64,000 bases of DNA, taken from the NCBI GenBank assembly GCA_965216755.1, contig CBDCGL010000011.1:4512001-4576000 (forward strand), read 5' to 3'. The notes beneath the pieces are model-generated. The model saw nothing but the letters and a program-made list of their open reading frames with translations, was not told the origin of the DNA and made no database searches. Position numbers and translations under genes: made by a program. Below, piece by piece: positions 3,149 through 55,619 of this stretch. Each line of letters opens with the position of its first letter. Position 1 is the stretch's first letter. This DNA is from Alphaproteobacteria bacterium (GTDB taxonomy: Bacteria > Pseudomonadota > Alphaproteobacteria > UBA7887).

Positions 3149-3204
3149 GCAATGGTTAGCAGCAAAACAGGCTGCCGTTTGACCGATATTTGCGAGGGTG
3201 AACT

Positions 3205-5576: not shown

Positions 5577-5590
5577 GGAGTAGGCAGATT

Positions 5591-7473: not shown

Positions 7474-7481
7474 CGAGCGGT

Positions 7482-11277: not shown

Positions 11278-11325
11278 ATAATGTCGTTTCGGTATCGAGT
11301 TAGGCAGCGTCTGGCCGGGACCCGC

Positions 11326-16637: not shown

Positions 16638-16658
16638 GCTCTGGGTAGGCTAGCCGCC

Positions 16659-20915: not shown

Positions 20916-20925
20916 TCTCTCGTTT

Positions 20926-23421
20926 TCAATCGGCAGAAGGCGGCGTCTGTGACAGGGCCAGTGGCGCGGCAGCCAGCGCCGGCGGAAAGTCTCCGATATG
21001 GTAGTTGTGGCATTCCGTGCAGCGATCGCCGGCCAGTTCATGCTTATGGCATGCAGCGCAGGTTGATTTGTCCAATGAACGGAAATTACTCGCGAATTGG
21101 GCGGGTTGGCGGTGGTCAAAACTGGCCATGTACGCTGCTGCCGGATCCAGGATGTGGCAAGTGAGGCATCCGGCCTCGTTCAACAGGCTGAAATGGGGGA
21201 CATGCGCGTAGACGCTGAATCGCTTGTCATTTGGCTGTGGCGGCACGGTCAGCCAATTGATGAGGAACCCGCCATTTTGGCCCTTGCGGTCGTCGACGCT
21301 GTGGCACTTGGTACAGGAGCCGACTGTTTTTGAGTTGGTGAGTAGTTGTGCCAGCGGTGCGCCAAGGGGATCAGCGCCGCCGATCATGCCGGACAGGTCA
21401 AGCCATGCGCGCATGAACCCGTCGGCATGATCGCCAGGTCGGTAATACAAGCCATAGTCTTGCCGATACCAGCCGCCAGCATTGCTCCAGGCTTCTGGGG
21501 CGACCGGCCTTAGCGCTTGCGGCAGCGGTGTCACGTCCACGTCCGCCACCGGCGCCGACGCGCGGTCGTTGCTGTCCGGCATGTCGCCCGCGTTGCCGTC
21601 CGAAAGGCTGATTTCATCGTCGTCTGCCAGCAGTCCTTCGTCCCCCAGTAGGTCGCCGTCGTTGCCCAGCAGGTCGCCACCGTCTGCTAGCAAATCATCG
21701 CCCAGCAAATCACCATCGTCCGCCAGCAGATCGTCGTCGAGCAGGCCGCCAAGGTCGCCATTGTCGGCTTCCGCGGTCGGTGTATCGAATAGGGTCTCGG
21801 CATCGTCAGCGGCGCCGTCGCTGTCGAGCAGGCCGCCAAGGTCCAGCTCTTCCGTTGTTTGGGCGGGCGTCTCGGCAAGGTCACCAGTCGCCTCCGGTTC
21901 CGACACGTGGCTGGCGATTTCCGAGGCCGTTGGCCCCATGACGATGTCGCCCGCCGCGTGGCGCGCCAACTCGGTGCCCAAGTCTGGAAACCACTCGCTT
22001 TGTGCCGCCAAGACGGCATCGGTTGGCAGCATGCCGATCAATGATGCGACTTGGTCACTTGTTAGCTGTCGCCCAGCCACTCGTGACAGTCGATCGGCAT
22101 ATGCGTCGTGGCCGTCGACGACAATTGACCCGAGCATTTTTTTGACGCCCCACGCGACGCGGGCGACGGCGGCCAATTGGTGGTCGTCTGCGTCCAACAA
22201 ATCGAGCAGGTCCAGCGTCGACACCTCGTCCAGAGCGTCGGCGACATCGGGGTCCGCGGCCAGTAGCACACGCACGAAGGGCGTGATCGGGCCGTCGGCA
22301 TAATAGGGCCAATGGCCGATCTCAACATTGCGGGCGTCGAGGGTCTGCAGGTCCAGACCCGGCAACGCAATAACCGGCAGTCCTTTGACACCCGCGCGGC
22401 CCTCGCCGGCGATTTGTTTGCCGTGGCACGCGCGGCAAGTTTGGTCGAAGTCCTTCACCAGCATGTAGGCTCCGCCCGTGTCGGGTTCATGGCAGCCGGT
22501 GCAGGCCGTTGGCGCGTCGACGGTGTCCGGTTCCCTAAAATGCTTACCGATATGACCGACATGGTCGAAAATAATCCGCGTTCGCCTTTGATAAGGAAAC
22601 GACTCAAACTGCGGATGACCCTGGACAAACGTATCAAATGCTCTTTCGTGACATGTGTGGCAGTGCAGGTTGGAAATCTCGTCCAAGGTATAGCGCTGCC
22701 CGTGATGCTCTCGATGACACGTTGAACAGGCCAAATCTTGGTCCTTCGGCTGTTGGCCGAATACGAACTTGGCCACTGTCGGCATAATTGAAACTTGCTG
22801 CGGTCGTGGCATGTTCTGCAAGCGGGTCGTGACCGGCTTCAATGTTTCCGGCGCCAAGCTGTGTGCTTTGGTCGCGTAGTTGCCAAGCCGATGGCACGCA
22901 AGACATGGCGCGCTGTCTTCCGCTGCGCTCCGCGGTAAGAACGCTGCCTGCAGCCAGCCAATAAGTCCGTGCTCGGAACCAGTGTGGCATCCGTCGCAGG
23001 TCGCCACGTCGCCATGTTGATAGGTCACTTCGCCGGGCACGACCACACGCTCCGCCAGGCGACCATTGAGCAGTAAGAGGATGGCACCAACGGTCAGGCA
23101 CACAAGCCACAGTGTTGTCAAACCGCGTCGGGCACGATCACTACGTTTGGGGACGCAGCGGTCTATCGGACGGGCGCAGCGACCATCAGGAAGCGGGCCG
23201 TCGGTGCAACGGCCGCCATATTGCGGTGCACGCGTGCACGACCATCGATCGTCGGTATTGAGTGGAATGCATTCAAAATCGGCCCGGCATTGGCCACGCA
23301 AATCCGGTCCGATCCGGCATGTGCGACCGTCTTGGGCGCGTCCGCAGACCCATGGCTGCGACGGCCGTTCATAAGCACTTTCGCGGTGACCAAACCGCTG
23401 CCAAAGGGATGACATACTCAC
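20926..23421 (-). CDS. Membrane-anchored decaheme c-type cytochrome with N-terminal Cys-rich domain
   Basis: Ten CxxCH motifs (CDGCH, CLACH, CSTCH, CHTCH, CTGCH, CRACH, CTKCH, CLTCH, CAACH, CTECH); one TM after an 8-Cys N-terminal segment; acidic DLL(G/A) repeat linker. Confidence 0.9.
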   Translation of the reverse strand: MSMSSLWQRFGHRESAYERPSQPWVCGRAQDGRTCRIGPDLRGQCRADFECIPLNTDDRWSCTRAPQYGGRCTDGPLPDGRCARPIDRCVPKRSDRARRGLTTLWLVCLTVGAILLLLNGRLAERVVVPGEVTYQHGDVATCDGCHTGSEHGLIGWLQAAFLPRSAAEDSAPCLACHRLGNYATKAHSLAPETLKPVTTRLQNMPRPQQVSIMPTVAKFVFGQQPKDQDLACSTCHREHHGQRYTLDEISNLHCHTCHERAFDTFVQGHPQFESFPYQRRTRIIFDHVGHIGKHFREPDTVDAPTACTGCHEPDTGGAYMLVKDFDQTCRACHGKQIAGEGRAGVKGLPVIALPGLDLQTLDARNVEIGHWPYYADGPITPFVRVLLAADPDVADALDEVSTLDLLDLLDADDHQLAAVARVAWGVKKMLGSIVVDGHDAYADRLSRVAGRQLTSDQVASLIGMLPTDAVLAAQSEWFPDLGTELARHAAGDIVMGPTASEIASHVSEPEATGDLAETPAQTTEELDLGGLLDSDGAADDAETLFDTPTAEADNGDLGGLLDDDLLADDGDLLGDDLLADGGDLLGNDGDLLGDEGLLADDDEISLSDGNAGDMPDSNDRASAPVADVDVTPLPQALRPVAPEAWSNAGGWYRQDYGLYYRPGDHADGFMRAWLDLSGMIGGADPLGAPLAQLLTNSKTVGSCTKCHSVDDRKGQNGGFLINWLTVPPQPNDKRFSVYAHVPHFSLLNEAGCLTCHILDPAAAYMASFDHRQPAQFASNFRSLDKSTCAACHKHELAGDRCTECHNYHIGDFPPALAAAPLALSQTPPSAD
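21615..21850 (-). repeat. Intragenic acidic D-L-L-(G/A)-D peptide repeats
   Basis: DLGGLLD occurs twice, then DDLLADDGDLLGDDLLADGGDLLGNDGDLLGDEGLLADDDE. Confidence 0.85.
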
Positions 23422-23424
23422 GGC

Positions 23425-24249
23425 TTACGAGAACGCATAGACCAGGACAATATGAACCAAGATGAGGATCAGAAGCACGGTGCTGACTGGCACGTGGACA
23501 AACTGCCAACGGCGCAACAAAGATTGCATCGCGTATTGAAAATCCAAGTCGTCTTTTGTGCGCACCAAATCGGCAAGCTGGTCCATCACGGCGCACTCGC
23601 CAGCGTCCAGATAACGTTCGAGGCCGCGCATTTGATTGAGCAACCGGGTGCGTGGTCGGCCGGACAGCATGGCGTGGCGCCAGAAATTTCGGGGCCGATC
23701 AAAAAAGCTATGCAACTGGTCGCTGTAATAATCCGCGATCGTCGTCGAGCGGGCGTCCTTAACAGAATTGATCGCCAGAGCTTCGGCTTGCGTCGCCAGT
23801 TTGCGCCGGTAGATCGGAATCCGTTCGTAAACGACATTCTCACCCCGCACAGACAGCCGGGGCGGCACGGCGCGGAACAGAAGCCAACCGACCAAACCGC
23901 TGGCGACGACGAAAGCAAAAGCAATGGCGAGAACGGTTTCGAACGGCCCGTCCGGTACTTGCCAGTCGACGTGCACGCCGAAGAGAAACGCACAGACCAA
24001 GCCGATATAGACGTGCAGTTGCAGCCAAGCGGACGACGAACCCAACGGCAAAAACGGCAACCGCCGGCGAATTTGATAGCAAGCCAAGAAGAGGATCGTC
24101 AGAAACAATGTCCAGCCGGTCAAGAATGATGGATTGCGCAGCGTCGATGCATAGATCGCGTGCACGCCGGCGAGTACGATCACGATCACAACAGCCGTCC
24201 CCGCATGCACCATTCGGCGCCTGGCAAAGGTGATCATCTGTGGATCCAA
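23425..24249 (-). CDS. Integral membrane protein, probable diheme b cytochrome (ferric-reductase-like TM domain)
   Basis: About 5 hydrophobic helices; two helices each carry H-x13-H (HVYIGLVCAFLFGVH; HVPVSTVLLILILVH). Confidence 0.75.
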   Translation of the reverse strand: MDPQMITFARRRMVHAGTAVVIVIVLAGVHAIYASTLRNPSFLTGWTLFLTILFLACYQIRRRLPFLPLGSSSAWLQLHVYIGLVCAFLFGVHVDWQVPDGPFETVLAIAFAFVVASGLVGWLLFRAVPPRLSVRGENVVYERIPIYRRKLATQAEALAINSVKDARSTTIADYYSDQLHSFFDRPRNFWRHAMLSGRPRTRLLNQMRGLERYLDAGECAVMDQLADLVRTKDDLDFQYAMQSLLRRWQFVHVPVSTVLLILILVHIVLVYAFS

Positions 24250-25946
24250 GCCATCAACTTGTCCGGTGTTCTGAGATCGATGCGAACCAAGGCATCATTC
24301 GGACACGCGCGCTGGCACGCGGGACCACCCAATTGATCGGCACAAAGGTCGCATTTGGTTGCCCGCTCGATGGGCGCATTGGTGGCCTGATCGATGACGA
24401 ATTCGCCAGCCCGATTACGGATGTTCACCAACCGAATATTATTGTAGGGGCACGCACTCGCACAGGTCCCACAACCGATGCATGTGTCGTCGTTGATCAC
24501 CACAGTGCCGCCCTCTGTATCGCGGTGGATCGCGCCGGTTGGACAGCCGATGAGGCAGACCGGATCGACGCAATGCATGCAGGCATTGGCGATCATGAAA
24601 TGATCATAGTGCGGGCCGTGGCGGACAAATCGCGGGTTGTTGCCATGCGCGGCGGCGCACGCGCGCACGCATTCGTCGCAGCGTGTGCACCGGTCGACGT
24701 CGATGACCATAGTCTGTGTGCCGTTAATAAACCGATTGTCGACCAAAAACTCCAGCATGGCCGACTCGATGCGCCCTTCGGACGTGCCACGCTGCCACGC
24801 CGATTGAACGCCGCTGCGGGTTTCAACCGGTTCCGGCAGCGCCGCGGCCGGCATGGTTGGCAAAATGTGGTCGGCGACCAGATCACCGGGGATGCGCAGC
24901 ACGTCGACATATCCTGTCGCGCGCATGGTGCCTTGGAATGAAATCTGCTGATCGTTACGCCAATTGTGGACGATTTCCCTCAGGCCGAACGTGCCCCCGG
25001 GGCCCAAATAGCCGACCGTGCGATGGCCGTGGTCGACCCGTTCGGTGACCCGCGCAAATCCCGACCGCACAATAATCAAGCTATCGGCGTGTTCATCTTC
25101 GCCAGCGATAATCGGCTCGCCGGCGAGCCTTTCAGCATGTGTCCGTTCGCCCGCTGCCTTGTAGGCCGTGTACCATTCGAAACTGCCATAAGAGGCAAAC
25201 TGCGTGCGCGGCGCAATCTCCGCGATTTGCCCGGGGGTCAGGTGGGAGAGCAGGGGTGTGTCGCGAAGCTGGGCCGCCAAACTGCGCTCGCGATATAGCT
25301 GATCAATCTGTTCACGAAACTTGCGATCGCGACGGCGGATATCACGCAGACCTTGCCATCGAATTTCCAGCAGCTCCGAATCGCCGTCGGCGTAGATCGT
25401 TGCCGTTCGAGGCGCGCGCGATATGGCGCCAATCTCGCCGAACATTTCGCCCGCGCCTATGAGGGCGGTCCGATGGTTCTTCGTCACTTGCGCCGGATCG
25501 GGCAACGCGACGCGGATATCGTCGTCACCGTCGCCACGGACAATGACTTGCTCGCGCCGTCCCAAGTCACGGACTTCCGGTTGGCCAGGGTTGTTCCAAA
25601 GCTGGCTGATCGCCGACCACATCCCCCGCCGACTCGCTTCTTGGCGACCCAACGCTTTGGCAGGTAGCCGTGGGCCAAGCACGACCCGCGCGGCACCGGT
25701 CAGCACAACAAACGCCGAATTGCCATAATCCTCGGCGCGCACGACAATGTCGCCATAGCTATAACTGCGAATGCGCGTGTCATTGCGGATGATATCGCGC
25801 AAAGGCGCTGTATCTGGGAAGCTTGACGGATCGACTTGGGCAAAGGGATCGTGCGCCAAAACGCGATCAATGTCGGCTTCCGACATCGACGTGCTAAACG
25901 GATTTTCCCAACGGTCCGGACGATGAATTTCTACCGGTCGCGCCAT
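24234..25946 (-). CDS. Cyclic-nucleotide-binding (2 domains) + 4x[4Fe-4S] ferredoxin (NrfC/DmsB-like) fusion
   Basis: GEMFGEIGAISRAPRTATI phosphate-binding cassette; second degenerate cNMP domain; CTRCDECVRAC, CMHCVDPVCLIGCP, CIGCGTCASACP, KCDLC...PACQRACP; no signal peptide. Confidence 0.9.
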   Translation of the reverse strand: MARPVEIHRPDRWENPFSTSMSEADIDRVLAHDPFAQVDPSSFPDTAPLRDIIRNDTRIRSYSYGDIVVRAEDYGNSAFVVLTGAARVVLGPRLPAKALGRQEASRRGMWSAISQLWNNPGQPEVRDLGRREQVIVRGDGDDDIRVALPDPAQVTKNHRTALIGAGEMFGEIGAISRAPRTATIYADGDSELLEIRWQGLRDIRRRDRKFREQIDQLYRERSLAAQLRDTPLLSHLTPGQIAEIAPRTQFASYGSFEWYTAYKAAGERTHAERLAGEPIIAGEDEHADSLIIVRSGFARVTERVDHGHRTVGYLGPGGTFGLREIVHNWRNDQQISFQGTMRATGYVDVLRIPGDLVADHILPTMPAAALPEPVETRSGVQSAWQRGTSEGRIESAMLEFLVDNRFINGTQTMVIDVDRCTRCDECVRACAAAHGNNPRFVRHGPHYDHFMIANACMHCVDPVCLIGCPTGAIHRDTEGGTVVINDDTCIGCGTCASACPYNNIRLVNIRNRAGEFVIDQATNAPIERATKCDLCADQLGGPACQRACPNDALVRIDLRTPDKLMAWIHR

Positions 25947-25967
25947 ACCAGACGAGGCCGCGCCGCG

Positions 25968-27020
25968 CTAGCGGGCTGGCTTACCCTTGTAGCTTTCCGG
26001 CGCGGGAAGCAGGGCATCGAGCCCGGCAAGGTCGGCGCCGTCATTGGATTCGGCAAATTGTCGTGCGGCGGCTTCGATCTCATCGGCGGCCGCGTTCAGC
26101 GCATCCGCGTTGTTCAGCTTGAGTTTGACGCTGCCCGCGACCGCCAGCATGGCGTCAACCTCGGCAATCGACGCGGCTTTGCCGATTTGCTGCAGCCGCT
26201 GAGCCGCGGTCTTTGCCCGTTTTGCCATTGCCTTTGCATAGTCGGCGTTGGCCGTCGCCTTGGCGACGCCGCGCAGGGCGAATGTCAGGTCCAGGGCGCG
26301 CCCGACGACATACATGACGCGCTTGCGCGCGTCAGTCGCCTCGCGATTGGCTTTGCCTTCGGAAAACCAAATATTGTGACGCACTTCGCCTTGCGACCAG
26401 GCAACGAGCTCAAAAGCGCTGCCAGCCGGGTGGCCGCCTTCATTGACGAGTTTTTCCTCTGGCACGGTATGGCAGCCATAGCAGTTCGATGCCCAATCGA
26501 CGATCCACAACGGCCGGATCAATCCGGCAGCCTCGACCGTTGCTAGTCGTTCCGCCTTATGTTCAGGTGTCTCCGATTCTGCGGTGACATCCTTGCCGCC
26601 AAAATCGCTGTGGGGATCATTCCAATCCTTGGCCGCGCCGTGGCACGATTCACAACTGATTCCGGCAATTGCTTTTGTTTCACCGTCTGAAACAGCTTCG
26701 GTGAAATGACAACTCAGACAAACGCTCTCGTCTTTGATGCGGCGCAGGCCCAGCTTGTCGGCGATTTCGCGGGCCTTGTCCTCGCGCGGCATGGTCGTAA
26801 AGGTCTTGGCGTGATGCGTCTCTCGCCACACTTCGACCTCTTCCTTATGGCACTCGCCACACGTGTCGGGCCCCAGCACCATGGCCGGATCAGTTGCCGC
26901 ACCCCCAGCCGCGGCCGGTGCGGCCCAAAGCAGCATCACACCGCCGGCAACGGCGGCTGCCGCGCTGGCAAGTTGATTGTCCATGCCAGGACTTACACTC
27001 AAGGACATCTTGACCGGCAT
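25968..27020 (-). CDS. Periplasmic tetraheme c-type cytochrome (c554/c552-like) with helical C-terminal domain
   Basis: Signal-peptide-like N-terminus; CGECH, CLSCH, CESCHG, CYGCH. Confidence 0.88.
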   Translation of the reverse strand: MPVKMSLSVSPGMDNQLASAAAAVAGGVMLLWAAPAAAGGAATDPAMVLGPDTCGECHKEEVEVWRETHHAKTFTTMPREDKAREIADKLGLRRIKDESVCLSCHFTEAVSDGETKAIAGISCESCHGAAKDWNDPHSDFGGKDVTAESETPEHKAERLATVEAAGLIRPLWIVDWASNCYGCHTVPEEKLVNEGGHPAGSAFELVAWSQGEVRHNIWFSEGKANREATDARKRVMYVVGRALDLTFALRGVAKATANADYAKAMAKRAKTAAQRLQQIGKAASIAEVDAMLAVAGSVKLKLNNADALNAAADEIEAAARQFAESNDGADLAGLDALLPAPESYKGKPAR

Positions 27021-27135
27021 TCGCTCGCAATCCTCCCATTGAGGCGCCAGTTGATTATGTTTGGCGCCATGACCTCGCCAGGCGAGAATAGCATACTCGT
27101 TGACGCCTTCGGAATCCGACTCCCCGTGTCAACAT

Positions 27136-28407
27136 TTACGCATCAAGAACCAAGTCGGTCTTGGGAATCGCGATGCATGTCAGGCACGTACCGGCTTTGA
27201 CCTCGGCGGTCGGCTCAGTCAGATAGGTGACTTCGCCCGTCCGGATTGCCGTCACACAGGTTCCGCAATTGCCGACCCGGCAGCCAAAATCTATGGGTAC
27301 GGTGTTGGCTTGCGCCAGATCCAAAAGCGATCCTGCCGCGCCAGTCCATTTCGCCGTGCGGTTTGAGCGTTCAAAACTCACGGCCAAAGGGGTCTCGTCT
27401 TTGTCGTCGGCGACACCGGGTGCAGCGGCGCCTTGGACGCTGGCCGCCGCAAACGCTTCGCGATGCACGCGATCGTCCGGAACGCCCCATTTTCGGAGAT
27501 CCCCGCTCACTTGGGTCATCATCGCGGGCGGCCCGCAGATAAAGAAATCGTAGTTGGACGAGGGCAGTGTGTCTTTCAGATGATCGATCGAGATATGGCC
27601 CTTCAGATCGTAATCGGACTCGCCGTCCAGTCCCGGCCGTGGGCTGCTATAGGCGACGGTGACGTGAATGTTTTCGTTATCCAGATCAAAATCGCGTAGG
27701 CGCTCTTTGGTAAGATGCTCCAAGCCATTGCGCACACCGTAGAAAACCCAAACTTCACGCTTGCTGCCTGTTTCCACAATCGCGTCGAGCATGCTCAATA
27801 TGGGCGTGATGCCGATGCCGCCGGCGATCAACACCAAAGGCGAGTTTTCCAGCGGATCGATCGTGAAGTTGCCGCTGGGCGCGATCACGTCGATCAGGTC
27901 GCCCGCGTGCATGCCCCGATGCAAATGATTGGAAACCAGCCCCTCCGGCGCCGTATCGTTCTTGGCCGGGGCGGCCAGTCGCTTGACAGTGATTTGATAC
28001 TCGTCCGGCTCCGGCGTCCATTGCGACAGTGAATAGCAGCGCACCACCGGCCGCGGCTGGTCTTTCATGGCAAACCGAAAGGTCAGGAACTGGCCGGGTC
28101 GGTACGGGGGCAGGGGGCGATGATCGTGAGGCACCAAGCGAAACGAGGCGATATTGTCCGCTTCCGGAACGACTTCCGAGATTTCGAACTTGCGATAACC
28201 GCTCCAGCCAAAATTGACCCGATCCGTTTCCCCCTGAGTGGTCGCGGCCGCGGCCATCACATTTTGCCTGAGCACTTCCAGGGACAAGCGCCGCCGGTCG
28301 CGTTCGAAGGTCGAGCGCCTGGCAGATTCGACCAGCATCATCGTGGCTTGCGCCAATACCAACGCGATGATCAAGGCACCGGCAATTTGAACCAGCAATG
28401 CCATCAC
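27136..28407 (-). CDS. Membrane-anchored FAD/NAD(P)H oxidoreductase with C-terminal [2Fe-2S] (FNR/PDR-like)
   Basis: RCYSLS FAD motif, GLVSNHLH, AGGIGITP, FICGPP, GCRVGNCGTC...C plant-type ferredoxin; N-terminal TM; AGGAG RBS before GTG 28407/ATG 28404. Confidence 0.92.
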   Translation of the reverse strand: MMALLVQIAGALIIALVLAQATMMLVESARRSTFERDRRRLSLEVLRQNVMAAAATTQGETDRVNFGWSGYRKFEISEVVPEADNIASFRLVPHDHRPLPPYRPGQFLTFRFAMKDQPRPVVRCYSLSQWTPEPDEYQITVKRLAAPAKNDTAPEGLVSNHLHRGMHAGDLIDVIAPSGNFTIDPLENSPLVLIAGGIGITPILSMLDAIVETGSKREVWVFYGVRNGLEHLTKERLRDFDLDNENIHVTVAYSSPRPGLDGESDYDLKGHISIDHLKDTLPSSNYDFFICGPPAMMTQVSGDLRKWGVPDDRVHREAFAAASVQGAAAPGVADDKDETPLAVSFERSNRTAKWTGAAGSLLDLAQANTVPIDFGCRVGNCGTCVTAIRTGEVTYLTEPTAEVKAGTCLTCIAIPKTDLVLDA

Positions 28408-28468
28408 GCGCGTGGCTCCTTGGTTGGTCTTGACGATGGGACGTTCACGGCAGCCAGACCGAGTAGAA

Positions 28469-29887
28469 CTAGAACTTAACCTGAATCTCGGTTCGCGCGC
28501 CAAAACCGGCGCCCTCTGTCTCGGTCATCGAGCCGAACAAATCCAATTGCCAAAACGCCTGATTGTGAATTTGCAATTGATAGCGGCCGCCCAGCGCAAA
28601 CGCGTCTGAGTCAGACCCGTCGGCTGATTTCCGCGCGCCAAACTCAAGCACCAATTGTTCACGGTTGTTTGGGACCAAGAACCATTGGTGGCCGACCGAA
28701 AACCCGATAACGTCCTTGGCGCGATTGCTGAGCGCCGAACCAAAACGGCCGAGGCGCTGCGACGCGAACAGGATTCCGGCGCGTCCCAGCGGCCCGCCGA
28801 CCTGCGGATCACGGGCGGCCATGGTGAATTCATCCAATGCTGCGAACGCGGTGGCGTAGAGAATGTTGTCCGTACCCAAGGGTGTCGTCGACACATCGGC
28901 GAATAACAGATAGCCGTCCTTGGCAGCACGCGTGTCGCCGTCGAATGCCTGCGAGGTCATGAAGCGAAACGACGATGTCCAAAGCCCGAAACGTTGTACC
29001 GCGCTGAGACCCAAATAGGCCGCGTCACCGCCATTGTCGTCGGACGCCACATAGATTGCGTCCAAAGCCACGGTGCTCTTGTAAAAATCCGCCTCGTTGA
29101 ACAGCCCAAACAATTGCGCGTTGCTGTCCACGTCACTGTCGCCGCGGCTCACCTCGCCCCAACCATAAAGCCCAGAGACCCGCAAGTTCGCGCCGCCGGG
29201 AACGGTCAGGGAATTGCGCACGATGCCAATCGAGTCGAGCGCGGTATCGTCGATCAGGATCCCTTGTTGATAGGAGATCGCCTGACGCCCGACCGCAAAG
29301 CCATAGTCGAGGGTGCCGGAATCGTCCCGGTCCAGGTCGGGAAACAGTTCGCCGAAATCGCCTTCGAAAAACAGGGTGCGCACGTTGCCGTTGAAGCTTT
29401 CAAACGAGCCGCGCTCTGAGTCCGGCCCCAGCGTATAGCCGGTGTAGTTGACGCCTTGTCGCAACGGGTTGATTCCCAACAGCAATCTTTCCGTGCCCGT
29501 GAGCTGCAGATTGGCAAACAGATCGAGCGAGTTGGCCCATTCGGTGATTGGCTTGCGATCACCGCGGTCGAAGCTCTGCAAAGCCGTACGATAGGTTCCA
29601 AAGACCCACAAGGACGGTCGCCAGACGGCGCCGGTTGGCAGTTCCCAGCCCGGCTCGATATTGCCGACTTCCAGGAACGGGTCGCCAAATATCACCAGTG
29701 GTTTCGCCTGTGGCGGCAGCTCATCGACGACGTAGGGTACGGGCTCATCGGGTAGACTACGGCCGTAGATGCTGACCGCCGCGTCAACGGACCCGCATTC
29801 GAACGCCACCCATCCCGCCGCTCCAGCGATCGCCCATGCTGTAAAGTGCCACCGTCGGCGACACCAATCGCCCACCCGTTCCGCCAT
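28469..29887 (-). CDS. Putative outer-membrane beta-barrel (porin-like)
   Basis: Signal-like N-terminus, alternating amphipathic beta strands, C-terminal EIQVKF (terminal Phe); lies between cytochrome genes. Confidence 0.72.
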   Translation of the reverse strand: MAERVGDWCRRRWHFTAWAIAGAAGWVAFECGSVDAAVSIYGRSLPDEPVPYVVDELPPQAKPLVIFGDPFLEVGNIEPGWELPTGAVWRPSLWVFGTYRTALQSFDRGDRKPITEWANSLDLFANLQLTGTERLLLGINPLRQGVNYTGYTLGPDSERGSFESFNGNVRTLFFEGDFGELFPDLDRDDSGTLDYGFAVGRQAISYQQGILIDDTALDSIGIVRNSLTVPGGANLRVSGLYGWGEVSRGDSDVDSNAQLFGLFNEADFYKSTVALDAIYVASDDNGGDAAYLGLSAVQRFGLWTSSFRFMTSQAFDGDTRAAKDGYLLFADVSTTPLGTDNILYATAFAALDEFTMAARDPQVGGPLGRAGILFASQRLGRFGSALSNRAKDVIGFSVGHQWFLVPNNREQLVLEFGARKSADGSDSDAFALGGRYQLQIHNQAFWQLDLFGSMTETEGAGFGARTEIQVKF

Positions 29888-29907
29888 TTGCGACCTCGAC
29901 GACGTTA

Positions 29908-31842
29908 TTATTCGATTTCAAACTCGACTATCTTACGAGCGGCGACCGTGTGTCCGTCAACCAGGGCGTCGCCGACCGATCGTGGGCTCATGTTGAAGTC
30001 GAAGCCGACATCTTGAATTGCGTGGATCAAGTTTATCGGCACCATGCCAACAACGATTTCGACCTCAGCCGTGTAGGGACCGTAAACAATTAGTTCTTCA
30101 CCCGGCACCGTATAGGCGGTGCGGCGGCTGCCGAGCGGTTCGATGCCGCGCTTGTGGATGCGCGCGCTAAGTGGCCGACCGGTCAGAATGGTCGACCGTG
30201 TCGCCGGGCGAACAAACGGCAGCACATCGAGTGAATAGTTGGCGGCCAAGACTTGCTCGCGTTCGCCGCCGCGATTGTTCAGGGTCACAAAAAACGATTG
30301 CAGGCTATACAGCTGATCATCCAGCGGCACATCGCCACTGAGCACCAATTGCGAATGGGAATCGCGCAGGTCGCCGTTGCTGTCCAGGTCGCCAGAGACG
30401 AACACGGGTTGATCATCGCTGTCATATACGGTCACCCGCAGCCAGACGAGACGTTCCGCAATAAAGCCGGTCGGCACATTGTGTCCGTCGGTCCCGTTCC
30501 TAATTTCGACGTTGAGGCGAATGCCGTTGCGATCAGCTTTTTCAATGATCACCTCGCCGATCTTGAAGCCGGCACTGAGTACTTCTTGGCGCTTCGCCTT
30601 GGCCCAGGCGAGCAGCTCGAATTGGTCATCAAGGATATCGCGCGCGTCATAGCGATCATCGATCGTGCGCCAGCGTTCCGGAAATGTGTAATCCTCCGGC
30701 ACGTTGTCTTCGAACGAATCAGTGCCCCAACCGGCCTCATAATCGAACGTCAGCCACTCCTCCAACGTGGCCATGCGCGCGGCTTCGACATTGTGCGGAA
30801 AGATCCCCGGATGCACGATTGAATGGTCCGGACCGGCGAAATAATGATTGGTCAACTTGCGCGGCTCTGTCGCCACGCCGCCGATCTCTGCCGCCGGCCC
30901 GTGTTCGTATCCGGACACCACGCCCTGCACCTTGCCCATATGGCAATCGTGGCACGTGGCGCCGCCATCGGCACCGCTATTGCGCAAATCGTTGGCCGGT
31001 GACGTCTTGAATTCACTAAATGCTTCTTCCAGTCGAAACCCGTTGGGCAGTGTCACATCGTGGCAGGTACCGCAAAAGCCCGGCTCGACCATCTGGAAAA
31101 AACGTTCGGCCTCGGTGTGGATCTTGCGACCCGGCTGGTCCGCGTCGGTGACCACTTTGTAACGATTCCGGTTGTCGAGGACCCGATTGAGTTCGTCACC
31201 CCCCGTTGGGCCGCGCACCGGCTTTAGGATGTCGCCTTGGTCGATGGCCATGCGACCACTGATCTTGCCATACGCTTGGCTGACACGATGACAGACCACG
31301 CAGGTGATGCCTTCGCGTGACGTGGGATGCCGGTCGAGATTGTTAGTGGCGATGCCTTCGCCGAGATTCATGCCCACCTGGTTGTGACAGCGGATGCAGA
31401 AGTCACCCACCGTGCCACTCAGGCGATCATAGCTAAATCTCTGCATGGCCATGTAAATTGGGCTCAGCTGGGCATAGGAATGTTGTGAGACGGACCACTC
31501 GCGATAGTGTTTCGGGTGGCAGGTCATGCAGGTCGTCGCCGAGGGGTAGCGATCTTCCAGAAACAGGGCTTCGTGGGCCGCGGCCGCAGTCGAACCCGCT
31601 AGCGCACCCGGTTCGTCTTCAGCTTCAGTATCAGCGTCGGCCGTCGGTTCATCGAGTGGTACTTCGTCGTCGCCGAGCAAGTCGTCGCCACCCAAAAGGT
31701 CGTCGCCGCCGAGCAAGTCATCATCTGCAAGCAGCGTGTCGTCGCCAAGTAGGTTGTCATCTTGCGCAAGACTTGGCCCGGCCAAAGTAAGCGCCGCCGC
31801 CATGCCGATCGCCATAGCAACTCGCGAGAACCTGATTTGCAT
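29908..31842 (-). CDS. Exported pentaheme c-type cytochrome with C-terminal beta-rich domain
   Basis: Signal peptide (…GPSLA); CMTCH, CIRCH, CVVCH, CGTCH, CHDCH; GHNVPTG motif; N-terminal acidic DDLLGG repeats. Confidence 0.88.
   Translation of the reverse strand: MQIRFSRVAMAIGMAAALTLAGPSLAQDDNLLGDDTLLADDDLLGGDDLLGGDDLLGDDEVPLDEPTADADTEAEDEPGALAGSTAAAAHEALFLEDRYPSATTCMTCHPKHYREWSVSQHSYAQLSPIYMAMQRFSYDRLSGTVGDFCIRCHNQVGMNLGEGIATNNLDRHPTSREGITCVVCHRVSQAYGKISGRMAIDQGDILKPVRGPTGGDELNRVLDNRNRYKVVTDADQPGRKIHTEAERFFQMVEPGFCGTCHDVTLPNGFRLEEAFSEFKTSPANDLRNSGADGGATCHDCHMGKVQGVVSGYEHGPAAEIGGVATEPRKLTNHYFAGPDHSIVHPGIFPHNVEAARMATLEEWLTFDYEAGWGTDSFEDNVPEDYTFPERWRTIDDRYDARDILDDQFELLAWAKAKRQEVLSAGFKIGEVIIEKADRNGIRLNVEIRNGTDGHNVPTGFIAERLVWLRVTVYDSDDQPVFVSGDLDSNGDLRDSHSQLVLSGDVPLDDQLYSLQSFFVTLNNRGGEREQVLAANYSLDVLPFVRPATRSTILTGRPLSARIHKRGIEPLGSRRTAYTVPGEELIVYGPYTAEVEIVVGMVPINLIHAIQDVGFDFNMSPRSVGDALVDGHTVAARKIVEFEIE
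31660..31765 (-). repeat. Intragenic DDLLG(G) tandem repeat
   Basis: QDDNLLGDDTLLADDDLLGGDDLLGGDDLLGDDE immediately after the signal peptide. Confidence 0.85.
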
Positions 31843-31984
31843 CGGAAAATTCCCCGTTCCCTGACGTTTCCGAGCTTGCAACTTTGCCCTGAAACCGATC
31901 GACTCTCCACCACGTCTCATTATACGGCGATCGTGTTGAACCCGACCACCTCAACGCCATGTTAGGGGGCATGGCGCGCCTATC

Positions 31985-32000
31985 TATGAACAAGGTCACA
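31985..32000. promoter_or_regulatory. CRP/FNR-family-like box in the divergent promoter of the cytochrome operon
   Basis: TATGA-acaagg-TCACA, 9/10 match to TGTGA-N6-TCACA. Confidence 0.5.
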
Positions 32001-32134
32001 GCTGGAAGTCGCGGGCCGACGTCACAATATGGCCAGCTTGGCGGGCTAAATTGCACCATTCGCAGCGGTCGCCTGTCGATCGCGTATTGCGTATGCTGCT
32101 GCCAAATGACAACCAAAATGGGAGGCGCACAGTC

Positions 32135-32848
32135 ATGACTACCGGGCGTTTTGCACTCGCCTTTGTGGCGCTATCCGCCGTGATGCTGATCGATGCCGTG
32201 GCCGCACAGGCCGAGACGACATTTGTCTTGAGGATTCGGAATGTCAGCGAGGCCAATACCATGGCGCTCAGCGACGGCACGCGCGAGGCCGCGTTGTTGT
32301 CGTGGGGTGTTTATGCGATTCACGATAGCGGCACGCCGATCTTCACACCCGGTCAAGCGGCAGGAGGCGCGGGACTGGAACCTTTGGCGGAAGACGGCGT
32401 TGCGGACCAGTTGGCCGAATCGCTCCGGTCCGCGGCCGGTGTCAAGACAGCCGGCGTTCTGAAAGCTCGTTTGGTCGATGGCGTTCCGGTCATTCCCGCG
32501 GGCGGCCTGATGCGCGCGGTGGCCAAAGCCAATCCGGGCGACCGTTTGTCTTTCGCCGTGATGTTGGAACAATCCAATGACTTGTTCTATGCATTCGCTG
32601 AAACAGGGGTCCCTTTGTTTGATGATTCAGGCGCGCCGATTAGCGCTGATTTGACCCCGCAGATCATGCTTTGGGACGCCGGCACCGAGGTCAATCAGGA
32701 TCCCGGATTGGGGCCGGACACGGGCAACAACGAGCAAGAGCTGAACCAAGGCCCCGACGAAGGTGGTGTCGTGCGACTGGTGGACGACGGCTTTACCTAT
32801 CCGGCGATCGCCAATGTAATCAAGCTGACGGTTGAGCCGCGCGAATAG
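32135..32848 (+). CDS. Secreted spondin-N-domain protein
   Basis: Signal peptide; GLEPLAEDG, LSFAVMLEQSNDLF, WDAGTEVNQ. Confidence 0.85.
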   Translation: MTTGRFALAFVALSAVMLIDAVAAQAETTFVLRIRNVSEANTMALSDGTREAALLSWGVYAIHDSGTPIFTPGQAAGGAGLEPLAEDGVADQLAESLRSAAGVKTAGVLKARLVDGVPVIPAGGLMRAVAKANPGDRLSFAVMLEQSNDLFYAFAETGVPLFDDSGAPISADLTPQIMLWDAGTEVNQDPGLGPDTGNNEQELNQGPDEGGVVRLVDDGFTYPAIANVIKLTVEPRE

Positions 32849-35800
32849 GGACCGCGCCAGCCTGCAATTGGTGGAGCAGGTCGGCCGCACCAATCAAGTC
32901 CGGGCTGGTGAAACCTTCGCTAAACCAGTCGTAAACGGGCTTCAGTACGCAAATTGCGGCTGGGGTTTCACCTTGGGCGTGGCGTAAACGGGCGAGGGAC
33001 GTCGCGGCACGAAGTTCAAGCGACTTCTCGCCCTGTTCACGCGCGCTTTGCAGTGCGCTGCATAAGTCCTTTTTCGCCGCGTCGATGACAGAGTTGGGAA
33101 GGACACCACGCGTGCCCGCGGCCAATCGCAGTTCGCCGCGCAATCGGTAGAGTTCGGGCGCGATGGCCCGGCCGCCTTTGCCCGTTAAGCGGTCCAGCCC
33201 TTGCACAATCGCATCGTGCGCGGCGTCGTAACGACCGGCGCTGCACAGTGCTGTGGCTCGCGACGCAGAATAGAATGTTGACGGACCGCGTTGCCACATG
33301 GGTGCACCGGCTTCGAAGCCTCTGTCGATTTCGGCCAGGCCTGCCTCGATGTCGCCGGTTTCGACCATCGCCCAACCGCGATGGATCATGCTGTGGACGC
33401 GCCAGGTTGGGAAGTTGTGCTGTGTTGAGATAGCCAACGAGCGTTCGGCACGCGCCTTTAGCACATCCCACTGGCCCAACCGGGCATAGACCGATCCGCC
33501 GACGCTGAGAGCAAACGCTAGGCTAAACGGGTGGCCAATATGCTCTGCGGCCTCAAGGGCTGAATCCGCCGCCCGCGCGGCTTGATCAGGGTAGCCCAAA
33601 TACCATAGCACCAAAGCCAATACAGAGCGGCATACAACGCCGAGATCATTGAGTTGCGACCCGAGGATCTGACCGGCCTCGCTGGGTCGGTACATCAGTG
33701 AAGCACGCTCCAAATAGGCACGCGCTTTGACAATTTCGCCGTGATCATACAGGCACACACCGACAGCCGTATTGGCCGCCAGCGTGATTTCCGAGTCATC
33801 GACGCGCTCAGATAACGCCATGAGCCGTTCGGCATAGTGACGGGCCTCGCGCGCCCGTCCCGTGCTCAAATTGTGGCTATAAAAGCCAAGCAATGCGCGC
33901 GCTGTCTGCCGGTCATCGCCGAGTTCTTCGGCCAAAGCCAAAACGCGATCCAGGGATAGTCGAACCTGCGGCGCCGCGTAGCCGTGCGACGCGGCCAGCG
34001 CACCGGCACGCAGCGATCGTAAGCGCAGTTCCATGCATTTTTCGGCGCGACCCGAAGGCAACGTTTCCAGCCAGCCAAGACCTTTTTCCGTCTCGCTCAG
34101 CGCTTCGGCCATGGCGGCACTGCGCACGCTGCGTTCTGCGGCGCGGATGCAGTAGGTGAGCGCTTTGTCGAGCAAGCCGGCCGCCGCGTAGTGTCGGGCG
34201 ACGGTGCCCGGCGTCGCCTCGGCGATTCCAGGAAATTTCGTGGCCAGTGTGTCACCGATCGTGTGGTGATATTGCTGGCGTTTGCGTCTAAGCAGCGATT
34301 CGTAGGCGACGTCATGGATCAAGGCATGCCGGAAAACGTAAGACTCATCGGCGGTCGTTCGCCGTTTCGAAATGATGCCCGCGTTCACAAGCTGCGCAAG
34401 GGCGCCGCGCAATGCCGGTTCGGCCAGGGATGCGACGGATGCCAAGACATCGAAATTGAAGGTTCGACCGATCACCGACGCCAGCTGGGCGACATCTTTT
34501 GCGGCGCCGAGACCGTCAAGGCGTGCCATAAGCGAATCCTGCAGGGTCTCGGGGACGGCCAATACCGGATGTCTGTCGTTGTTGTCAGCGGATTCGGGGT
34601 CCTGTTCGGGATCACGCTGCAACAACATGCGCGTGACTTCCTCGAGAAATATGGGGACACCATCGGCGCGTTTGACAATTTTCGCGATGATCTCGGCGGG
34701 CAATCGCGCGGCACCTTCGATACCGTTGACGATCGCCGTAGCCTGATCGTTGTCCAGCCGTTTAAGGGGCAAATGCGCTACGTTCGGCAAATAGTGCCAG
34801 GGCGATTCATAGTCTGCGCGATGGGCGATCAACAGCAATATGCGGTGCGCAGGCGCCAGTTCGATAACGCGCTCAAAGAAGGCCGCCGTCGACGGGTCGA
34901 TCCAGTGGGCATCTTCCAGCACAATGAGCACCGGCTTTCGCGCGGCGATCGCCAACAATAGCGCGCACAGGCTCTCTAGCTTGCGTTCCTTCTGGTCAAT
35001 GCCGCTTGTCGCGGGCACTGCGAAGCGATCGTCAACCGGTACGGACAGCAACGCCGCAAACGCCGGCAAATGCGTTTCCACATCCAGTCCGAAGTGGCTC
35101 AACATCCGTTCCAGGCGCGCCTGCTTCTCCCCAACTTTCATTTCACGCGAGAATCCAAGACGCCGTTCCAAAGCGCGGATCAGCGGATGAAACGCGGTTG
35201 CGCTATGGTAAGTTGAGCAATAATGACGCAGCCAACTAAATTCTTGCGCTGAAAACTGCGCCCGCACGGCCGCAATAACGCGGGATTTGCCGATCCCAGG
35301 ATCACCAGTCAGTATGATCGTGCCGCCACGTCCTTCTTGCGTGCGGTCCCACGCTTGCGCGATCGCCTCAATTTCATGTGTGCGGCCGACCAACGGCGTC
35401 AGCGCACGGCCGACGGCGTCGAGACGGGTTGCGACATCCAGGCTTCCGTGCACCTCAAAGATCGGCATGGGTGCGTCAACGCCTCGCAAATCTTGCGATC
35501 CGCGGCCGACACAGTCGAAATATCCGGCGATCAGGCGATGGGTAGCCGCACTGACAAACACCGTATTTGGTGCAGCGGCGGCCTGGATGCGTGCGGCAAT
35601 ATTGGGGGTACCGCCAATGGCATCTTCCGAATTGAGCACGTCCGCGGTGTGCTCCTGACCGACAACAACGAGGCCGGAGTGGATGCCGACGCGGACCGAC
35701 AAGCCGGCGTCGTGATCCAGGTCCGCAACAACGTCGATGAGTTCCAATCCGGCTCGGACCGCCCGCTGCGCATCATCTTCGTGGGCGCTTGGATAACCGA

Positions 35801-44442: not shown

Positions 44443-44615
44443 ACAATTGCGATCACGATTTAGCCTTCGGTCGGCCGCTGGTCGAGCGCATGATTATAGG
44501 CTATCAACGGGATCGACCATAGTTGAAGGCGCAGCCCGATGGCATAATGTGTGGCTGCGGGTACTATGGCATTCTAGCATTTGTGCCGATTATCTGAACC
44601 TTGAGAGAACGAGAC

Positions 44616-54418: not shown

Positions 54419-54428
54419 GTGCGCGGTC

Positions 54429-55430: not shown

Positions 55431-55511
55431 GCGTCGGCACACGGGCGCAGTTCCACCCGCGCATTCCGACACGTGAAGCCGCACAATGCGGCAGCATCGG
55501 CGGTCGCAAAA

Positions 55512-55532: not shown

Positions 55533-55619
55533 GAAATGTAATTCACGTGATGATGTCGTTGCTACACGGAAAGAGCGAATCACGGACGTTTATTATACAT
55601 ATTCCGGATAGGAGCCGAT

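Follow-up and report, generated by a model that had tools for sequence, protein, structure and literature searches.

What are seven packed genes doing that lead, by their predicted products, from a cytoplasmic NAD(P)H reductase to a barrel in the outer membrane, with 19 motifs for c-type hemes among them? The question is raised by a locus on a stretch of 64,000 nucleotides (nt) from an alphaproteobacterium (contig CBDCGL010000011.1), which we call the window and which we analyzed at its full length. The locus is a member of ptdABCDEFG, an operon described in marine Alphaproteobacteria (bioRxiv 10.1101/2023.11.21.568154), and matches it gene for gene and in order. We suggest that the Ptd proteins form an electron-export chain of two modules, which would be fed by NAD(P)H, would sense a cyclic nucleotide (cNMP), and would reduce a diffusible oxidant at the cytochrome PtdA, seated on the pore of PtdB. 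We put the probability of this reading as a whole at roughly one half. The seven genes are:

29908..31842 (longest open reading frame to 31920), minus strand: ptdA, Sec-exported pentaheme cytochrome
28469..29887, minus strand: ptdB, outer-membrane beta-barrel of about 18 predicted strands with a C-terminal Phe
27136..28503 (likely start near 28404), minus strand: ptdC, anchored FNR-type FAD/NAD(P)H + [2Fe-2S] reductase
25968..27020, minus strand: ptdD, exported soluble tetraheme protein, a relative of cytochrome c554
24234..25946, minus strand: ptdE, cytoplasmic protein with two cNMP-binding domains and a four-cluster ferredoxin domain
23425..24249, minus strand: ptdF, inner-membrane protein of 274 amino acids (aa), a putative di-heme b cytochrome
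20926..23421, minus strand: ptdG, cytoplasmic 8-Cys domain, one transmembrane (TM) helix and a periplasmic decaheme part

In the list of open reading frames (ORFs) of the window, these head-to-tail minus-strand genes span 20926-31920. Going from ptdA to ptdG, a 20-nt gap separates ptdA from ptdB; ptdB and ptdC overlap by 35 nt, which becomes a gap of 64 nt if ptdC starts at codon 34; gaps of 115 nt and 21 nt follow between ptdC and ptdD and between ptdD and ptdE; the ORFs of ptdE and ptdF overlap by 16 nt, and 3 nt lie between ptdF and ptdG. A motif scan counted five CxxCH motifs in PtdA, four in PtdD and ten in PtdG, and found neither CxxCK nor longer-spaced variants of the heme motif in the cluster proteins. 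Pfam and NCBIfam searches returned no molybdopterin, hydrogenase or NrfD-type subunit in the cluster. The first-pass annotation of this DNA, a reading of the letters alone, had described seven packed co-oriented genes with 5 + 4 + 10 motifs and no such catalytic partner, and in both respects it was right.

It was mistaken in not recognizing the system, since the architecture already has a name, even though it is still uncharacterized by experiment. As far as its available text goes, the ptd preprint (10.1101/2023.11.21.568154) describes penta-, tetra- and decaheme proteins in that order among other conserved genes, and labels PtdC an FAD/NAD(P) oxidoreductase, PtdE a cNMP-binding protein with 4Fe-4S clusters, PtdF ferric-reductase-like and PtdG a decaheme protein. 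Its authors suggest a porin-cytochrome complex that, in analogy to Mtr and Pcc, might serve extracellular electron transfer, and state that the function “remains completely unknown”. They report ptd in Gammaproteobacteria, Planctomycetes and nitrite-oxidizing Nitrospirales as well, and high transcription of ptdAB in an oxygen-deficient zone, where the other ptd genes were not visible because contigs were cut. The assignment of our locus rests on the identical architecture and on homologs in marine alphaproteobacterial, Nitrospinota and Planctomycetota bins; compared with what the preprint presents, the window locus shows no structural difference, and the hosts are alphaproteobacterial in both cases. 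Full-text literature searches found no further papers on this cluster. A preprint on extracellular electron transfer in peat (10.64898/2026.05.27.727921), which treats Verrucomicrobiota and Acidobacteriota, was set aside as unrelated, because its available part deals with other architectures with 8-13-heme cytochromes. To the published description of ptd we add four clusters on PtdE, a complete set of candidate distal histidines, membrane anchors on PtdC and PtdG together with a conserved 8-Cys cytoplasmic domain on the latter, the division into two separable modules, a spread into non-saline habitats, a linked cyclase gene, a model with a hairpin inside the barrel, and the relation of PtdA to the enzyme MccSep.

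A proposed path from NAD(P)H to the periplasmic hemes

PtdC matches NAD_binding_1 (70.6 bits), Fer2 (36.4 bits) and FAD_binding_6 (29.0 bits) in Pfam, and in NCBIfam the reductase half of flavohemoprotein (226 bits) as well as PaaE, Hcr, BenC, MmoC and NqrF. It carries RxYS and GGIGITP-type motifs and a plant-type [2Fe-2S] domain, and residues C408, C413, C416 and C443, together with C156, Y157 and C323, are invariant in 57 of 57 sequences. A hydrophobic segment at residues 29-62 is followed by a run of Arg, so that by the positive-inside rule the catalytic part should face the cytoplasm; as homologs align only from residue 32-42 onwards, the likely start lies near 28404. The anchored FAD/NAD(P)H-[2Fe-2S] reductase of the first-pass annotation is thereby confirmed. 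NqrF has an N-terminal membrane anchor as well, but there the ferredoxin domain comes first, whereas the order in PtdC is anchor, FNR, [2Fe-2S].

PtdE joins a sensory and an electron-carrying half. Pfam finds cNMP_binding (PF00027) in two stretches at 83.1 bits, against a cut-off of 27.5, followed by Fer4_11 (43 bits) and Fer4_7. The Fe-S part, at residues 410-565, matches HydN, DmsB, DsrO, HybA and NrfC in NCBIfam with E-values from 1e-13 to 1e-18, but reaches no equivalog cut-off, which limits the assignment to membership in the superfamily. Four groups of Cys (C420/423/426/430, C456/459/464/468, C489/492/495/499 and C532/535/544/548) are present in 76 of 76 sequences, and this pattern of 16 invariant residues leads us to expect four clusters, as annotated earlier, rather than the two with which the ptd preprint, in its available text, describes the protein. 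Judging by its residues, the phosphate-binding cassette of the first cNMP domain is canonical: G170 and R177 occur in all 76 sequences, E171 in 75, F169 in 74, R180 in 71 and a Thr or Ser at 181 in 64. The second domain keeps the Gly, Glu and Arg, with G321, R342 and G345 in 76/76. A sequence scan found no signal peptide or hydrophobic segment in PtdE, which therefore should be cytoplasmic. In fifteen longer relatives, of 1037-1244 aa, the same Fe-S part is preceded by additional FHA and cNMP domains, which would fit a signal-receiving role of the N-terminal half. The Planctomycetota version (P0001-P0009) is about 1233 aa long, and in it FHA and further cNMP domains precede the four-cluster part.

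For PtdF, the case is built on four histidines. The structure model (pLDDT 93, pTM 0.83) is all-helical, with five TM helices, of which the fifth is long; TM4 and TM5 are separated by a helical domain of some 115 aa on the cytoplasmic side. H79 and H93 lie on helix 72-93 (TM3), and H252 and H266 on helix 216-273 (TM5); all four, the two H-x13-H pairs of the first-pass annotation, are invariant in 41 of 41 homologs. The two members of a pair are spaced by 14 residues, and the two helices that bear the pairs are parallel in the model. Such a geometry holds two stacked bis-His hemes in cytochrome b, and PtdF is thus a putative di-heme b cytochrome, with its four His placed, in the model, for a heme path across the membrane. 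Searches by family and fold added little: Pfam gave only DUF4405 at 19.5 bits, below the cut-off of 26.7, a Foldseek search of the PDB with the model had no match at E <= 0.001, and a profile search of solved structures had nothing below E 0.3. The Protein Atlas returned unnamed or auto-named clusters, perhaps the protein's own, and the label “ferric reductase-like” is an automatic cluster name of that resource, without Pfam support. An assignment by VIA-align was dropped, because the Z-scores (at most 11.3; designed two-heme bundle 10.7, HyaC 9.5, Dcytb 8.4, STEAP 8.0-8.1) are at the level common for helical bundles.

Several known systems resemble parts of this arrangement. NarHI and FdnHI also pair a four-cluster protein, as PtdE of the DmsB/NrfC family is, with a small membrane protein with His pairs, and Tmc and Hmc of sulfate reducers connect an Fe-S protein of the cytoplasm with a multiheme cytochrome of the periplasm, as Ptd would. 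Ptd differs from all of these in that it has no molybdopterin or CCG-type partner and no NarI or FdnI match for PtdF, and in that it has cNMP domains on PtdE and an NAD(P)H reductase at the cytoplasmic end. NOX and ferric reductases join NAD(P)H to two transmembrane b-hemes, as Ptd would by analogy; in Ptd, however, the heme-b protein is encoded by a separate gene, without a Ferric_reduct match, and a four-cluster protein is placed between the two.

On the periplasmic side, PtdG has a hydrophobic segment at 99-124, six hemes at 142-333 and four at 703-805; its first heme lies within about 17 residues of the anchor helix, and the layout includes four closely spaced hemes. It scores 17.2 bits with TIGR03153, against a cut-off of 134.2, and PF03264 was not reported, so that it falls outside the NapC/NrfH family by these models; a profile search of solved structures found nothing. 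PtdD belongs with the c554 cytochromes (Cytochrome_C554, 55.7 bits; solved relative 1bvb, E 3.5e-8). Ten non-motif His of PtdG are invariant in 49 of 49 homologs, and H70, H137, H197 and H215 of PtdD in 67 of 67. Counting these as candidate distal ligands, and adding those of PtdA, there are 10 for 10 hemes in PtdG, 4 for 4 in PtdD and 7 for 5 in PtdA, so all c-hemes could be six-coordinate, which fits electron transfer better than catalysis, at least for PtdD and PtdG.

Two further features of these cytochromes deserve mention. Residues 1-95 of PtdG (23137-23421) form a cytoplasmic domain with eight Cys at spacings of 5-10 residues, without a CxxC pattern; C26, C35, C45, C51, C62, C72, C82 and C89 are conserved in 46-48 of 49 homologs. 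The domain has no Pfam or NCBIfam match, and a Protein Atlas search with residues 1-130 gave no lead (best score 0.76). An acidic D/L/G repeat, with units like DDLLGDD, occurs at residues 54-86 of PtdA (31663-31761), that is, for 33 residues just past the signal peptide, and at residues 549-603 of PtdG (21613-21777), for 55 residues in the linker. A crude motif count finds such repeats in 20 of 38 PtdA and 20 of 77 PtdG homolog ORFs; as a guess, they might bind cations or minerals, or share a docking role.

PtdA, PtdB and their predicted complex

In the numbering of the long ORF, PtdA has its CxxCH motifs at 131, 175, 207, 283 and 323, and ends in a beta-sandwich with a basic hairpin at about 543-599. 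The likely start is the ATG at 31842 (codon 27), where a signal-peptide-like N-terminus opens; a lipobox Cys is lacking. The protein matches Cytochrome_C554 in Pfam (32 bits). Across 33 sequences seven His outside the heme motifs are conserved, and the only conserved Cys are those of CxxCH. An Asp-rich loop at about 501-534 (30319-30420), G-D-x-D-x-N-G-D-like and with D513, D517 and D534 invariant and D520 present in 32/33, recalls calcium-binding loops.

PtdB has no Pfam match, and a profile search of solved chains found nothing below E 0.3. Its model, however, is a barrel of about 18 strands (pLDDT 85, pTM 0.78), Foldseek places it nearest to OccK/OprD, MOMP, chitoporin and AlgE (E about 1e-11, TM-score about 0.5-0.65), and among 39 homolog ORFs the C-terminal residue is Phe in 32, Tyr in three and Leu in two, with two shortened. 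The beta-barrel annotated earlier at 28469-29887 is thus borne out by structure prediction. MtrB has 26 strands, and about 18 is the size of a substrate channel.

We modeled residues 50-472 of PtdB together with residues 100-670 of PtdA, each as a family alignment. The interface score ipSAE was 0.90 in all three runs, against 0.01 for the best of three controls, relative to a mark that is passed by 116 of 157 solved complexes and by 2 of 215 mismatched pairs, a calibration that holds only roughly here. The model has about 300 contacts, at least 89% of them common to the runs, with a partner pLDDT of at least 88. In it, residues 543-599 and 636-646 of PtdA, which belong to the C-terminal beta-sandwich and hairpin, contact every second residue, the lumen-facing ones, at the periplasmic ends of essentially all PtdB strands, and also residues 369-372, within the long loop 354-390, while the heme domain (161-228, 275-314) contacts the N-terminal extension and the periplasmic turns of PtdB. 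The hairpin is rich in Arg, with R571, R587 and R599 conserved, and the insert contains no heme motif; the invariant R100, R299, R308, R465, E415 and E467 of PtdB face the lumen by contact parity in the model. PtdA is thus modeled to sit on the periplasmic mouth of PtdB, with a heme-free hairpin in the lumen. Sequence searches found no similar solved complex, and the solved relatives of PtdA are not barrel complexes.

The closest of these is cytochrome c552 of Thermochromatium tepidum (5ze8), for which the E-value falls from 5.9e-8 with PtdA alone to 3.4e-16 with its family profile, and whose match covers both the heme domain and the beta-sandwich. With 435 aa it is shorter than PtdA (about 640) and lacks the acidic tail, and we know of no barrel partner for it. 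Its function is also unknown, according to the available text of the ptd preprint (10.1101/2023.11.21.568154). The PtdA family profile further matches MccSep weakly (9wt8, E 0.0013), and the ExtKL model NF040886 scores 36.3 bits on PtdA against a cut-off of 250. As the available part of the report on MccSep has it (Sci Adv 2026, PMC13510729), this protein is ExtKL of Geobacter sulfurreducens, a soluble tetrameric periplasmic polysulfide reductase with an unidentified donor, which combines a pentaheme cap with a stem that is Ig-like and has an extended hairpin; heme 2, ligated by Cys239, is the active site, and a selenocysteine (Sec) lies next to it on a loop of the stem. ExtI is an outer-membrane porin by the title of a reference in the same report, and a paper on cable bacteria, in the part available, places extKL and extI in one gene cluster.

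PtdA has the cap, the stem, the extended hairpin and the “GH..P.G” stem loop in common with MccSep, and the genes of both adjoin that of an outer-membrane channel. In the HMMER alignment, however, PtdA has L297/E298 in the columns of Cys239/240 and F486 in that of Sec. A polysulfide reductase of the MccSep type was therefore rejected, as the five motifs are present but the Sec/Cys site and the Cys ligand of heme 2 are not. A further difference is that the MccSep donor is unidentified, whereas PtdA is accompanied by a complete NAD(P)H-fed supply chain. In the model one of the contacts with PtdB is made by residue 481 of PtdA, which adjoins the position equivalent to the Sec loop; this hints that the pocket matching the MccSep active site looks into the pore. 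As a precedent, MccSep shows that a pentaheme protein of this fold beside a porin gene need not be a conduit. With respect to an earlier concern, that the cluster might match a characterized enzyme complex, nothing of the kind was found for the cluster as a whole, but the fold of PtdA is one that it has in common with an enzyme.

MtrAB, PioAB and MtoAB provide the other comparison. There, as in Ptd, a barrel and a periplasmic multiheme protein are encoded together (PtdA and PtdB being a predicted complex), and further multiheme cytochromes act earlier in the chain. PtdB differs from the 26-stranded MtrB in its strand number and in having no Pfam match, the insert of MtrAB is a decaheme chain whereas that of PtdA is modeled as a heme-free hairpin, and Mtr has a CymA-type quinol dehydrogenase where Ptd has cytoplasmic NAD(P)H and cNMP modules instead. 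With the DmsE/MtrA model TIGR03508, PtdA reaches 23.8 bits, where the cut-off is 192.2. Considering the small barrel, the low family score and the modeled hemeless insert, we rejected PtdAB as a conduit of the MtrAB/PioAB type. Of the conduit “to the surface” in the first-pass annotation, the predicted complex of barrel and pentaheme protein stands, whereas the element inside the barrel is a hairpin without heme, with the heme domain at the periplasmic mouth.

Conservation, modularity and the neighboring cyclase

When 41 related genomes were searched with PtdE, 13 had a full- or near-full-length relative, the window's own genome included; the other matches cover the Fe-S domain only. The ptd genes are syntenic in 12 of 12 loci cut out around PtdE relatives from 11 other related genomes. 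Three of the 12 (L020, L021, L022) have the order D-E-F-G-A-B-C instead of A-to-G, which makes ABC and DEFG the two blocks that change places. Two diverged clusters occur in one genome (G012), with PtdE 51% and 46% identical to that of the window (L018 and L022); one of them is ordered A-G and the other D-E-F-G-A up to the contig end, and the permuted type is also found in G039 and G006.

The spread extends far beyond these relatives. A scan of one genome per species, over 185,579 species genomes, found a PtdE relative in at least 567, and we counted linkage in the 80 best-matching loci of that scan, in each case only where the contig leaves room. By the labels of the records these 80 loci belong to Planctomycetota (32), Alphaproteobacteria (17), Verrucomicrobiota (14), Gammaproteobacteria (5), Myxococcota (3), unspecified Pseudomonadota (2), Acidobacteriota (2), Flavobacteriales (2, perhaps mis-assigned), Nitrospinota (1), SAR324 (1) and Bifidobacteriaceae (1, perhaps mis-assigned), about nine phyla in all. 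The record titles name ocean oxygen-deficient zones, sediments, groundwater, lakes and soils as sources. In contrast to the saline spread reported in the available text of the ptd preprint, they thus include groundwater, boreal-lake and soil bins, as well as Verrucomicrobiota, Myxococcota and Acidobacteriota. The synteny in the 12 related and the 80 public loci answers the doubt, voiced with the first-pass annotation, whether the genes occur together in other genomes.

PtdF follows PtdE in 77 of 77 loci, and PtdG is present in 76/76, PtdD in 70/76 and PtdC in 65/69. The pair ptdAB behaves differently: with at least 6.2 kb of room upstream, it is part of the locus in 32 of 60 cases and not there in 28. 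All seven genes stand together in 35 of the 80 loci, whose labels name at least six phyla; the three Myxococcota loci are without an adjacent ptdD as well. In all five genomes that we checked among those whose core has no adjacent ptdAB, PtdA is encoded elsewhere (E <= 1e-235), with PtdB beside it in the four that could be tested; the remote pair is 40-115 kb from the core or on another contig. The cluster therefore consists of two modules, a near-universal ptdCDEFG and a ptdAB that is adjacent in about half of the loci and elsewhere in the genome otherwise. Heme numbers are kept across this range. Among PtdA ORFs complete at the C-terminus, 32 of 35 have five CxxCH motifs, and the remaining three are truncated N-terminally; four motifs are present in 69 of 70 PtdD ORFs (the exception is a 51-aa fragment at a contig edge), and ten in 26 of 27 full-length PtdG ORFs. 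Two records are named as cultured strains, which makes the system directly testable: Ferruginivarius sediminum WD2A32 (L061) has all seven genes in order, and Planctomycetales bacterium ZRK34 has the complete set over L029 plus L103.

Clustering of the neighboring ORFs yielded only one further recurrent family, a cyclase-domain gene. In the window, two genes lie on that side of the cluster:

32820..36140, minus strand: class III cyclase-AAA_16-TPR protein, directly upstream of the cluster
32051..32848, plus strand: exported spondin-domain protein (NF038123, 104 bits), between the cyclase gene and ptdA

The cyclase protein matches Guanylate_cyc (69.5 bits), AAA_16 (87.8 bits) and TPR_12 in Pfam, and the same neighbor is found in close relatives (L011/L023, L012, L014/L025). 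In 14 Planctomycetota loci a divergently oriented gene of about 610-630 aa, with a cyclase domain in a different architecture, lies upstream of ptdC. From this gene context the cyclase suggests itself as a candidate source of the nucleotide sensed by PtdE. The cNMP module that had been annotated earlier is thus borne out in so far as the first PtdE domain appears to have a canonical cassette and a cyclase gene adjoins the cluster in two phyla. A spondin-domain gene occupies the same position only in close relatives (L011/L023, L012, L014/L025, L026), and its link to ptd is uncertain. The 208 nt that separate ptdA from the divergent spondin-domain gene, when read by eye, showed no palindrome of the CRP type, only two direct repeats of TGTGAC at 31995-32026, which are 26 nt apart and read on the strand of ptdA.

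The GC content of the cluster, 0.58-0.62, is within the range of the window (0.545-0.629) and does not set it apart. A scan of 20500-32300 gave three promoter-like and eight terminator-like sites, where shuffled sequences give 4.2 and 11.7; with sites no commoner than in shuffles, we claim no internal transcription signal. The public sequencing runs that contain the locus are four DNA runs, all of one study, and no RNA run is listed. Elsewhere in the window, a Tad/Flp pilus set at 2540-12273 (prepilin peptidase, RcpC/CpaB, secretin, CpaD, ATPases, two TadB/C-type genes) is followed at 14802-20915 by genes for a TamA-like Omp85 protein and a 1418-aa TamB, the latter ending 10 nt from the ptdG stop on the opposite strand. 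A fused SoxY-SoxZ protein (44601-45410), a Volactin-family protein (49501-50502) and, at 53963-59906, genes for an Rrf2 regulator, cysteine synthase, tetrapyrrole methylase, sulfite/nitrite reductase and PAPS reductase are ordinary context with no evident link to ptd.

Direction of flow, terminal acceptor and rival explanations

Together, these data suggest a model of the path of electrons through the envelope. PtdC would oxidize NAD(P)H and pass single electrons from FAD to its [2Fe-2S] cluster, and PtdE would relay them along four [4Fe-4S] clusters, while its N-terminal domains would sense cyclic AMP or cyclic GMP, probably made by the neighboring class III cyclase, and gate or tune the flow. 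PtdF would carry the electrons across the membrane on two bis-His b-hemes to PtdG, which, held beside it by one helix, would take them up on ten bis-His c-hemes in the periplasm. Soluble tetraheme PtdD would then shuttle them to pentaheme PtdA, docked at the periplasmic mouth of PtdB with its basic, heme-free hairpin in the lumen. The last step would most likely be the reduction of a small diffusible oxidant that reaches the PtdA hemes through or at the PtdB pore. What the data show is the set of parts with their conserved cofactor ligands, topology signals and genomic linkage, together with a PtdA-PtdB model of high score. We infer each transfer step, the direction, the gating and the acceptor, and for the inner module we do so from topology, cofactor motifs and the linkage of the genes; on the cytoplasmic side the parts agree with the order NAD(P)H, FAD/[2Fe-2S], four [4Fe-4S], hemes b and c-hemes of the first-pass annotation, and a bypass of quinones would follow from it. 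Outward flow is favored because reductases of the FNR-[2Fe-2S] kind oxidize NAD(P)H and because electrons moving outward go with the membrane potential. Since they would come straight from NAD(P)H, the path would conserve no energy by itself, which makes tight control by a signal sensible. The cluster is uncharacterized by experiment and unusual; the logic of its wiring is reasonable.

A number of observations weigh against this model. Neither the direction of flow nor the acceptor can be read from sequence. The support from complex models covers the pair of PtdA and PtdB, not the contacts of PtdC, PtdE, PtdF and PtdG, and that interface is itself a model made from our own alignments. PtdF matches no heme-protein family above threshold, so that its b-hemes depend on four His and their geometry. 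None of the 15 longer PtdE relatives is fused to PtdC or PtdF, which we count as weak evidence. The second cNMP cassette of PtdE is atypical, about 10 residues longer than usual, and the cyclase link amounts to about two independent cases, because the 14 Planctomycetota loci come from related lineages. PtdA may have one open or unusual heme site, given that Leu and Glu stand in the columns of the MccSep ligand Cys and that E298 is invariant. The anchor helix and the heme block directly behind it give PtdG a resemblance to the NapC/NrfH quinol dehydrogenases (NrfH E 0.004, far below the cut-off), and a link to quinones is possible through this layout.

Would the electrons, then, leave the cell altogether? 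With the same inner module, PtdAB could be a true surface conduit, the reading to which both the first-pass annotation and the ptd preprint incline: electrons would cross the outer membrane and be delivered to humics, to electrodes or to insoluble Fe(III) or Mn(IV). In favor of this, the gene of a barrel adjoins that of a multiheme cytochrome, the two products are predicted to bind strongly, the layout resembles Mtr and Pcc clusters, an analogy also drawn in the available text of the ptd preprint (10.1101/2023.11.21.568154), the acidic repeats on PtdA and PtdG could bind cations or minerals, and, by record titles and the same preprint, carriers come from sediment, groundwater and oxygen-deficient zones. 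However, in the model the PtdA element in the barrel (about 543-599) has no CxxCH and the heme domain touches the periplasmic rim and turns, and a predicted barrel of about 18 strands is like OprD/AlgE-type channels. Moreover, no outer-surface or lipoprotein cytochrome is encoded, as PtdA has no lipobox Cys and no further conserved neighbor family was found, and the solved relatives of PtdA are soluble, MccSep being periplasmic by the available account (PMC13510729). With the modeled insert hemeless and the barrel channel-sized, we favor a diffusible oxidant that is reduced at the mouth of the pore; hemes wired across the outer membrane appear less likely, and we consider the surface conduit unlikely. 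The supply of electrons could be questioned in the same way. PtdF, the membrane-proximal hemes of PtdG, or both might exchange with the quinone pool, so that quinol would feed the periplasmic chain as CymA/NapC feeds Mtr, and the role of PtdC and PtdE would be to reduce quinone or, alternatively, to regulate the module by sensing redox state and cNMP. An anchor helix followed by closely spaced hemes is indeed the NapC/NrfH layout, with weak matches of PtdG to NrfH and to paired-CXXCH models, and the four-cluster/di-heme b pairs NarHI and FdnHI work on quinones. On the other hand, PtdF and PtdG have no match at threshold to Cytochrom_NNT, NarI, FdnI or NrfD, all ten hemes of PtdG have a conserved His as candidate sixth ligand, and an NAD(P)H reductase that stays beside the core in 65 of 69 loci is hard to explain with quinol as donor, which makes a quinone-coupled module a quite improbable solution.

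That the two modules might not cooperate at all is suggested by the 28 of 60 loci without adjacent ptdAB, by the distance of 40-115 kb or a contig boundary between pair and core in the genomes checked, by the three Myxococcota loci that also lack an adjacent ptdD, and by the high ptdAB transcripts in the ptd preprint (10.1101/2023.11.21.568154), in whose available text the rest is hidden by cut contigs. PtdCDEFG would then be a general feeder from NAD(P)H to periplasmic cytochromes, for instance for peroxidases or N-oxide reductases, and PtdAB a separate porin-enzyme pair. Yet the genomes with such “orphan” cores still encode PtdA (5/5), with PtdB beside it (4/4 testable), all seven genes stand together in loci labeled as at least six phyla (35/80), and the modules are adjacent even where their order is permuted; we give this separation little credence. 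Finally, PtdAB could oxidize an external or periplasmic donor, such as Fe(II), reduced sulfur or reduced humics, and send electrons inward to NAD(P)+ or a cytoplasmic sink. The cluster is present in a Nitrospinota genome (L027) and, by the available text of the preprint (10.1101/2023.11.21.568154), in nitrite-oxidizing Nitrospirales, organisms that need reducing power, and the title of Chen et al. 2019 calls the T. tepidum c552 “low-potential”. Against this, PaaE, Hcr, BenC, MmoC and NqrF, the best NCBIfam matches of PtdC, are NAD(P)H oxidizers, inward flow works against the membrane potential while the cluster encodes no energy-coupling subunit, and most carriers are labeled as heterotrophic lineages. 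Of all the alternatives, inward flow seems to us the most remote.

If the export of electrons to a diffusible oxidant is what Ptd does, cells would have in it a common and so far unnoticed way to spend reducing power outside the cytoplasm, considering that at least 567 species genomes encode a PtdE relative. The Mtr, Pio/Mto and Pcc conduits, as far as we know, take electrons from the quinone pool; Ptd, unlike these, would draw on a cytoplasmic pyridine-nucleotide reductase. We also know of no other respiratory-type electron chain in which a cyclic-nucleotide sensor is part of an Fe-S subunit, so that Ptd would be the first. We propose only tentatively, and with more doubt than conviction, that Ptd represents a new class of trans-envelope redox machine, with quinone-independent export, a cNMP switch fed by a cyclase, and an 18-strand barrel plugged by a hairpin, at the mouth of which an imported oxidant is reduced. 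As the cluster is common, and as ptdAB is highly transcribed in an oxygen-deficient zone according to the available text of the ptd preprint, knowledge of the acceptor could bear on the redox cycling of iron, sulfur, iodine, nitrogen and reactive oxygen species in the sea and in soils.

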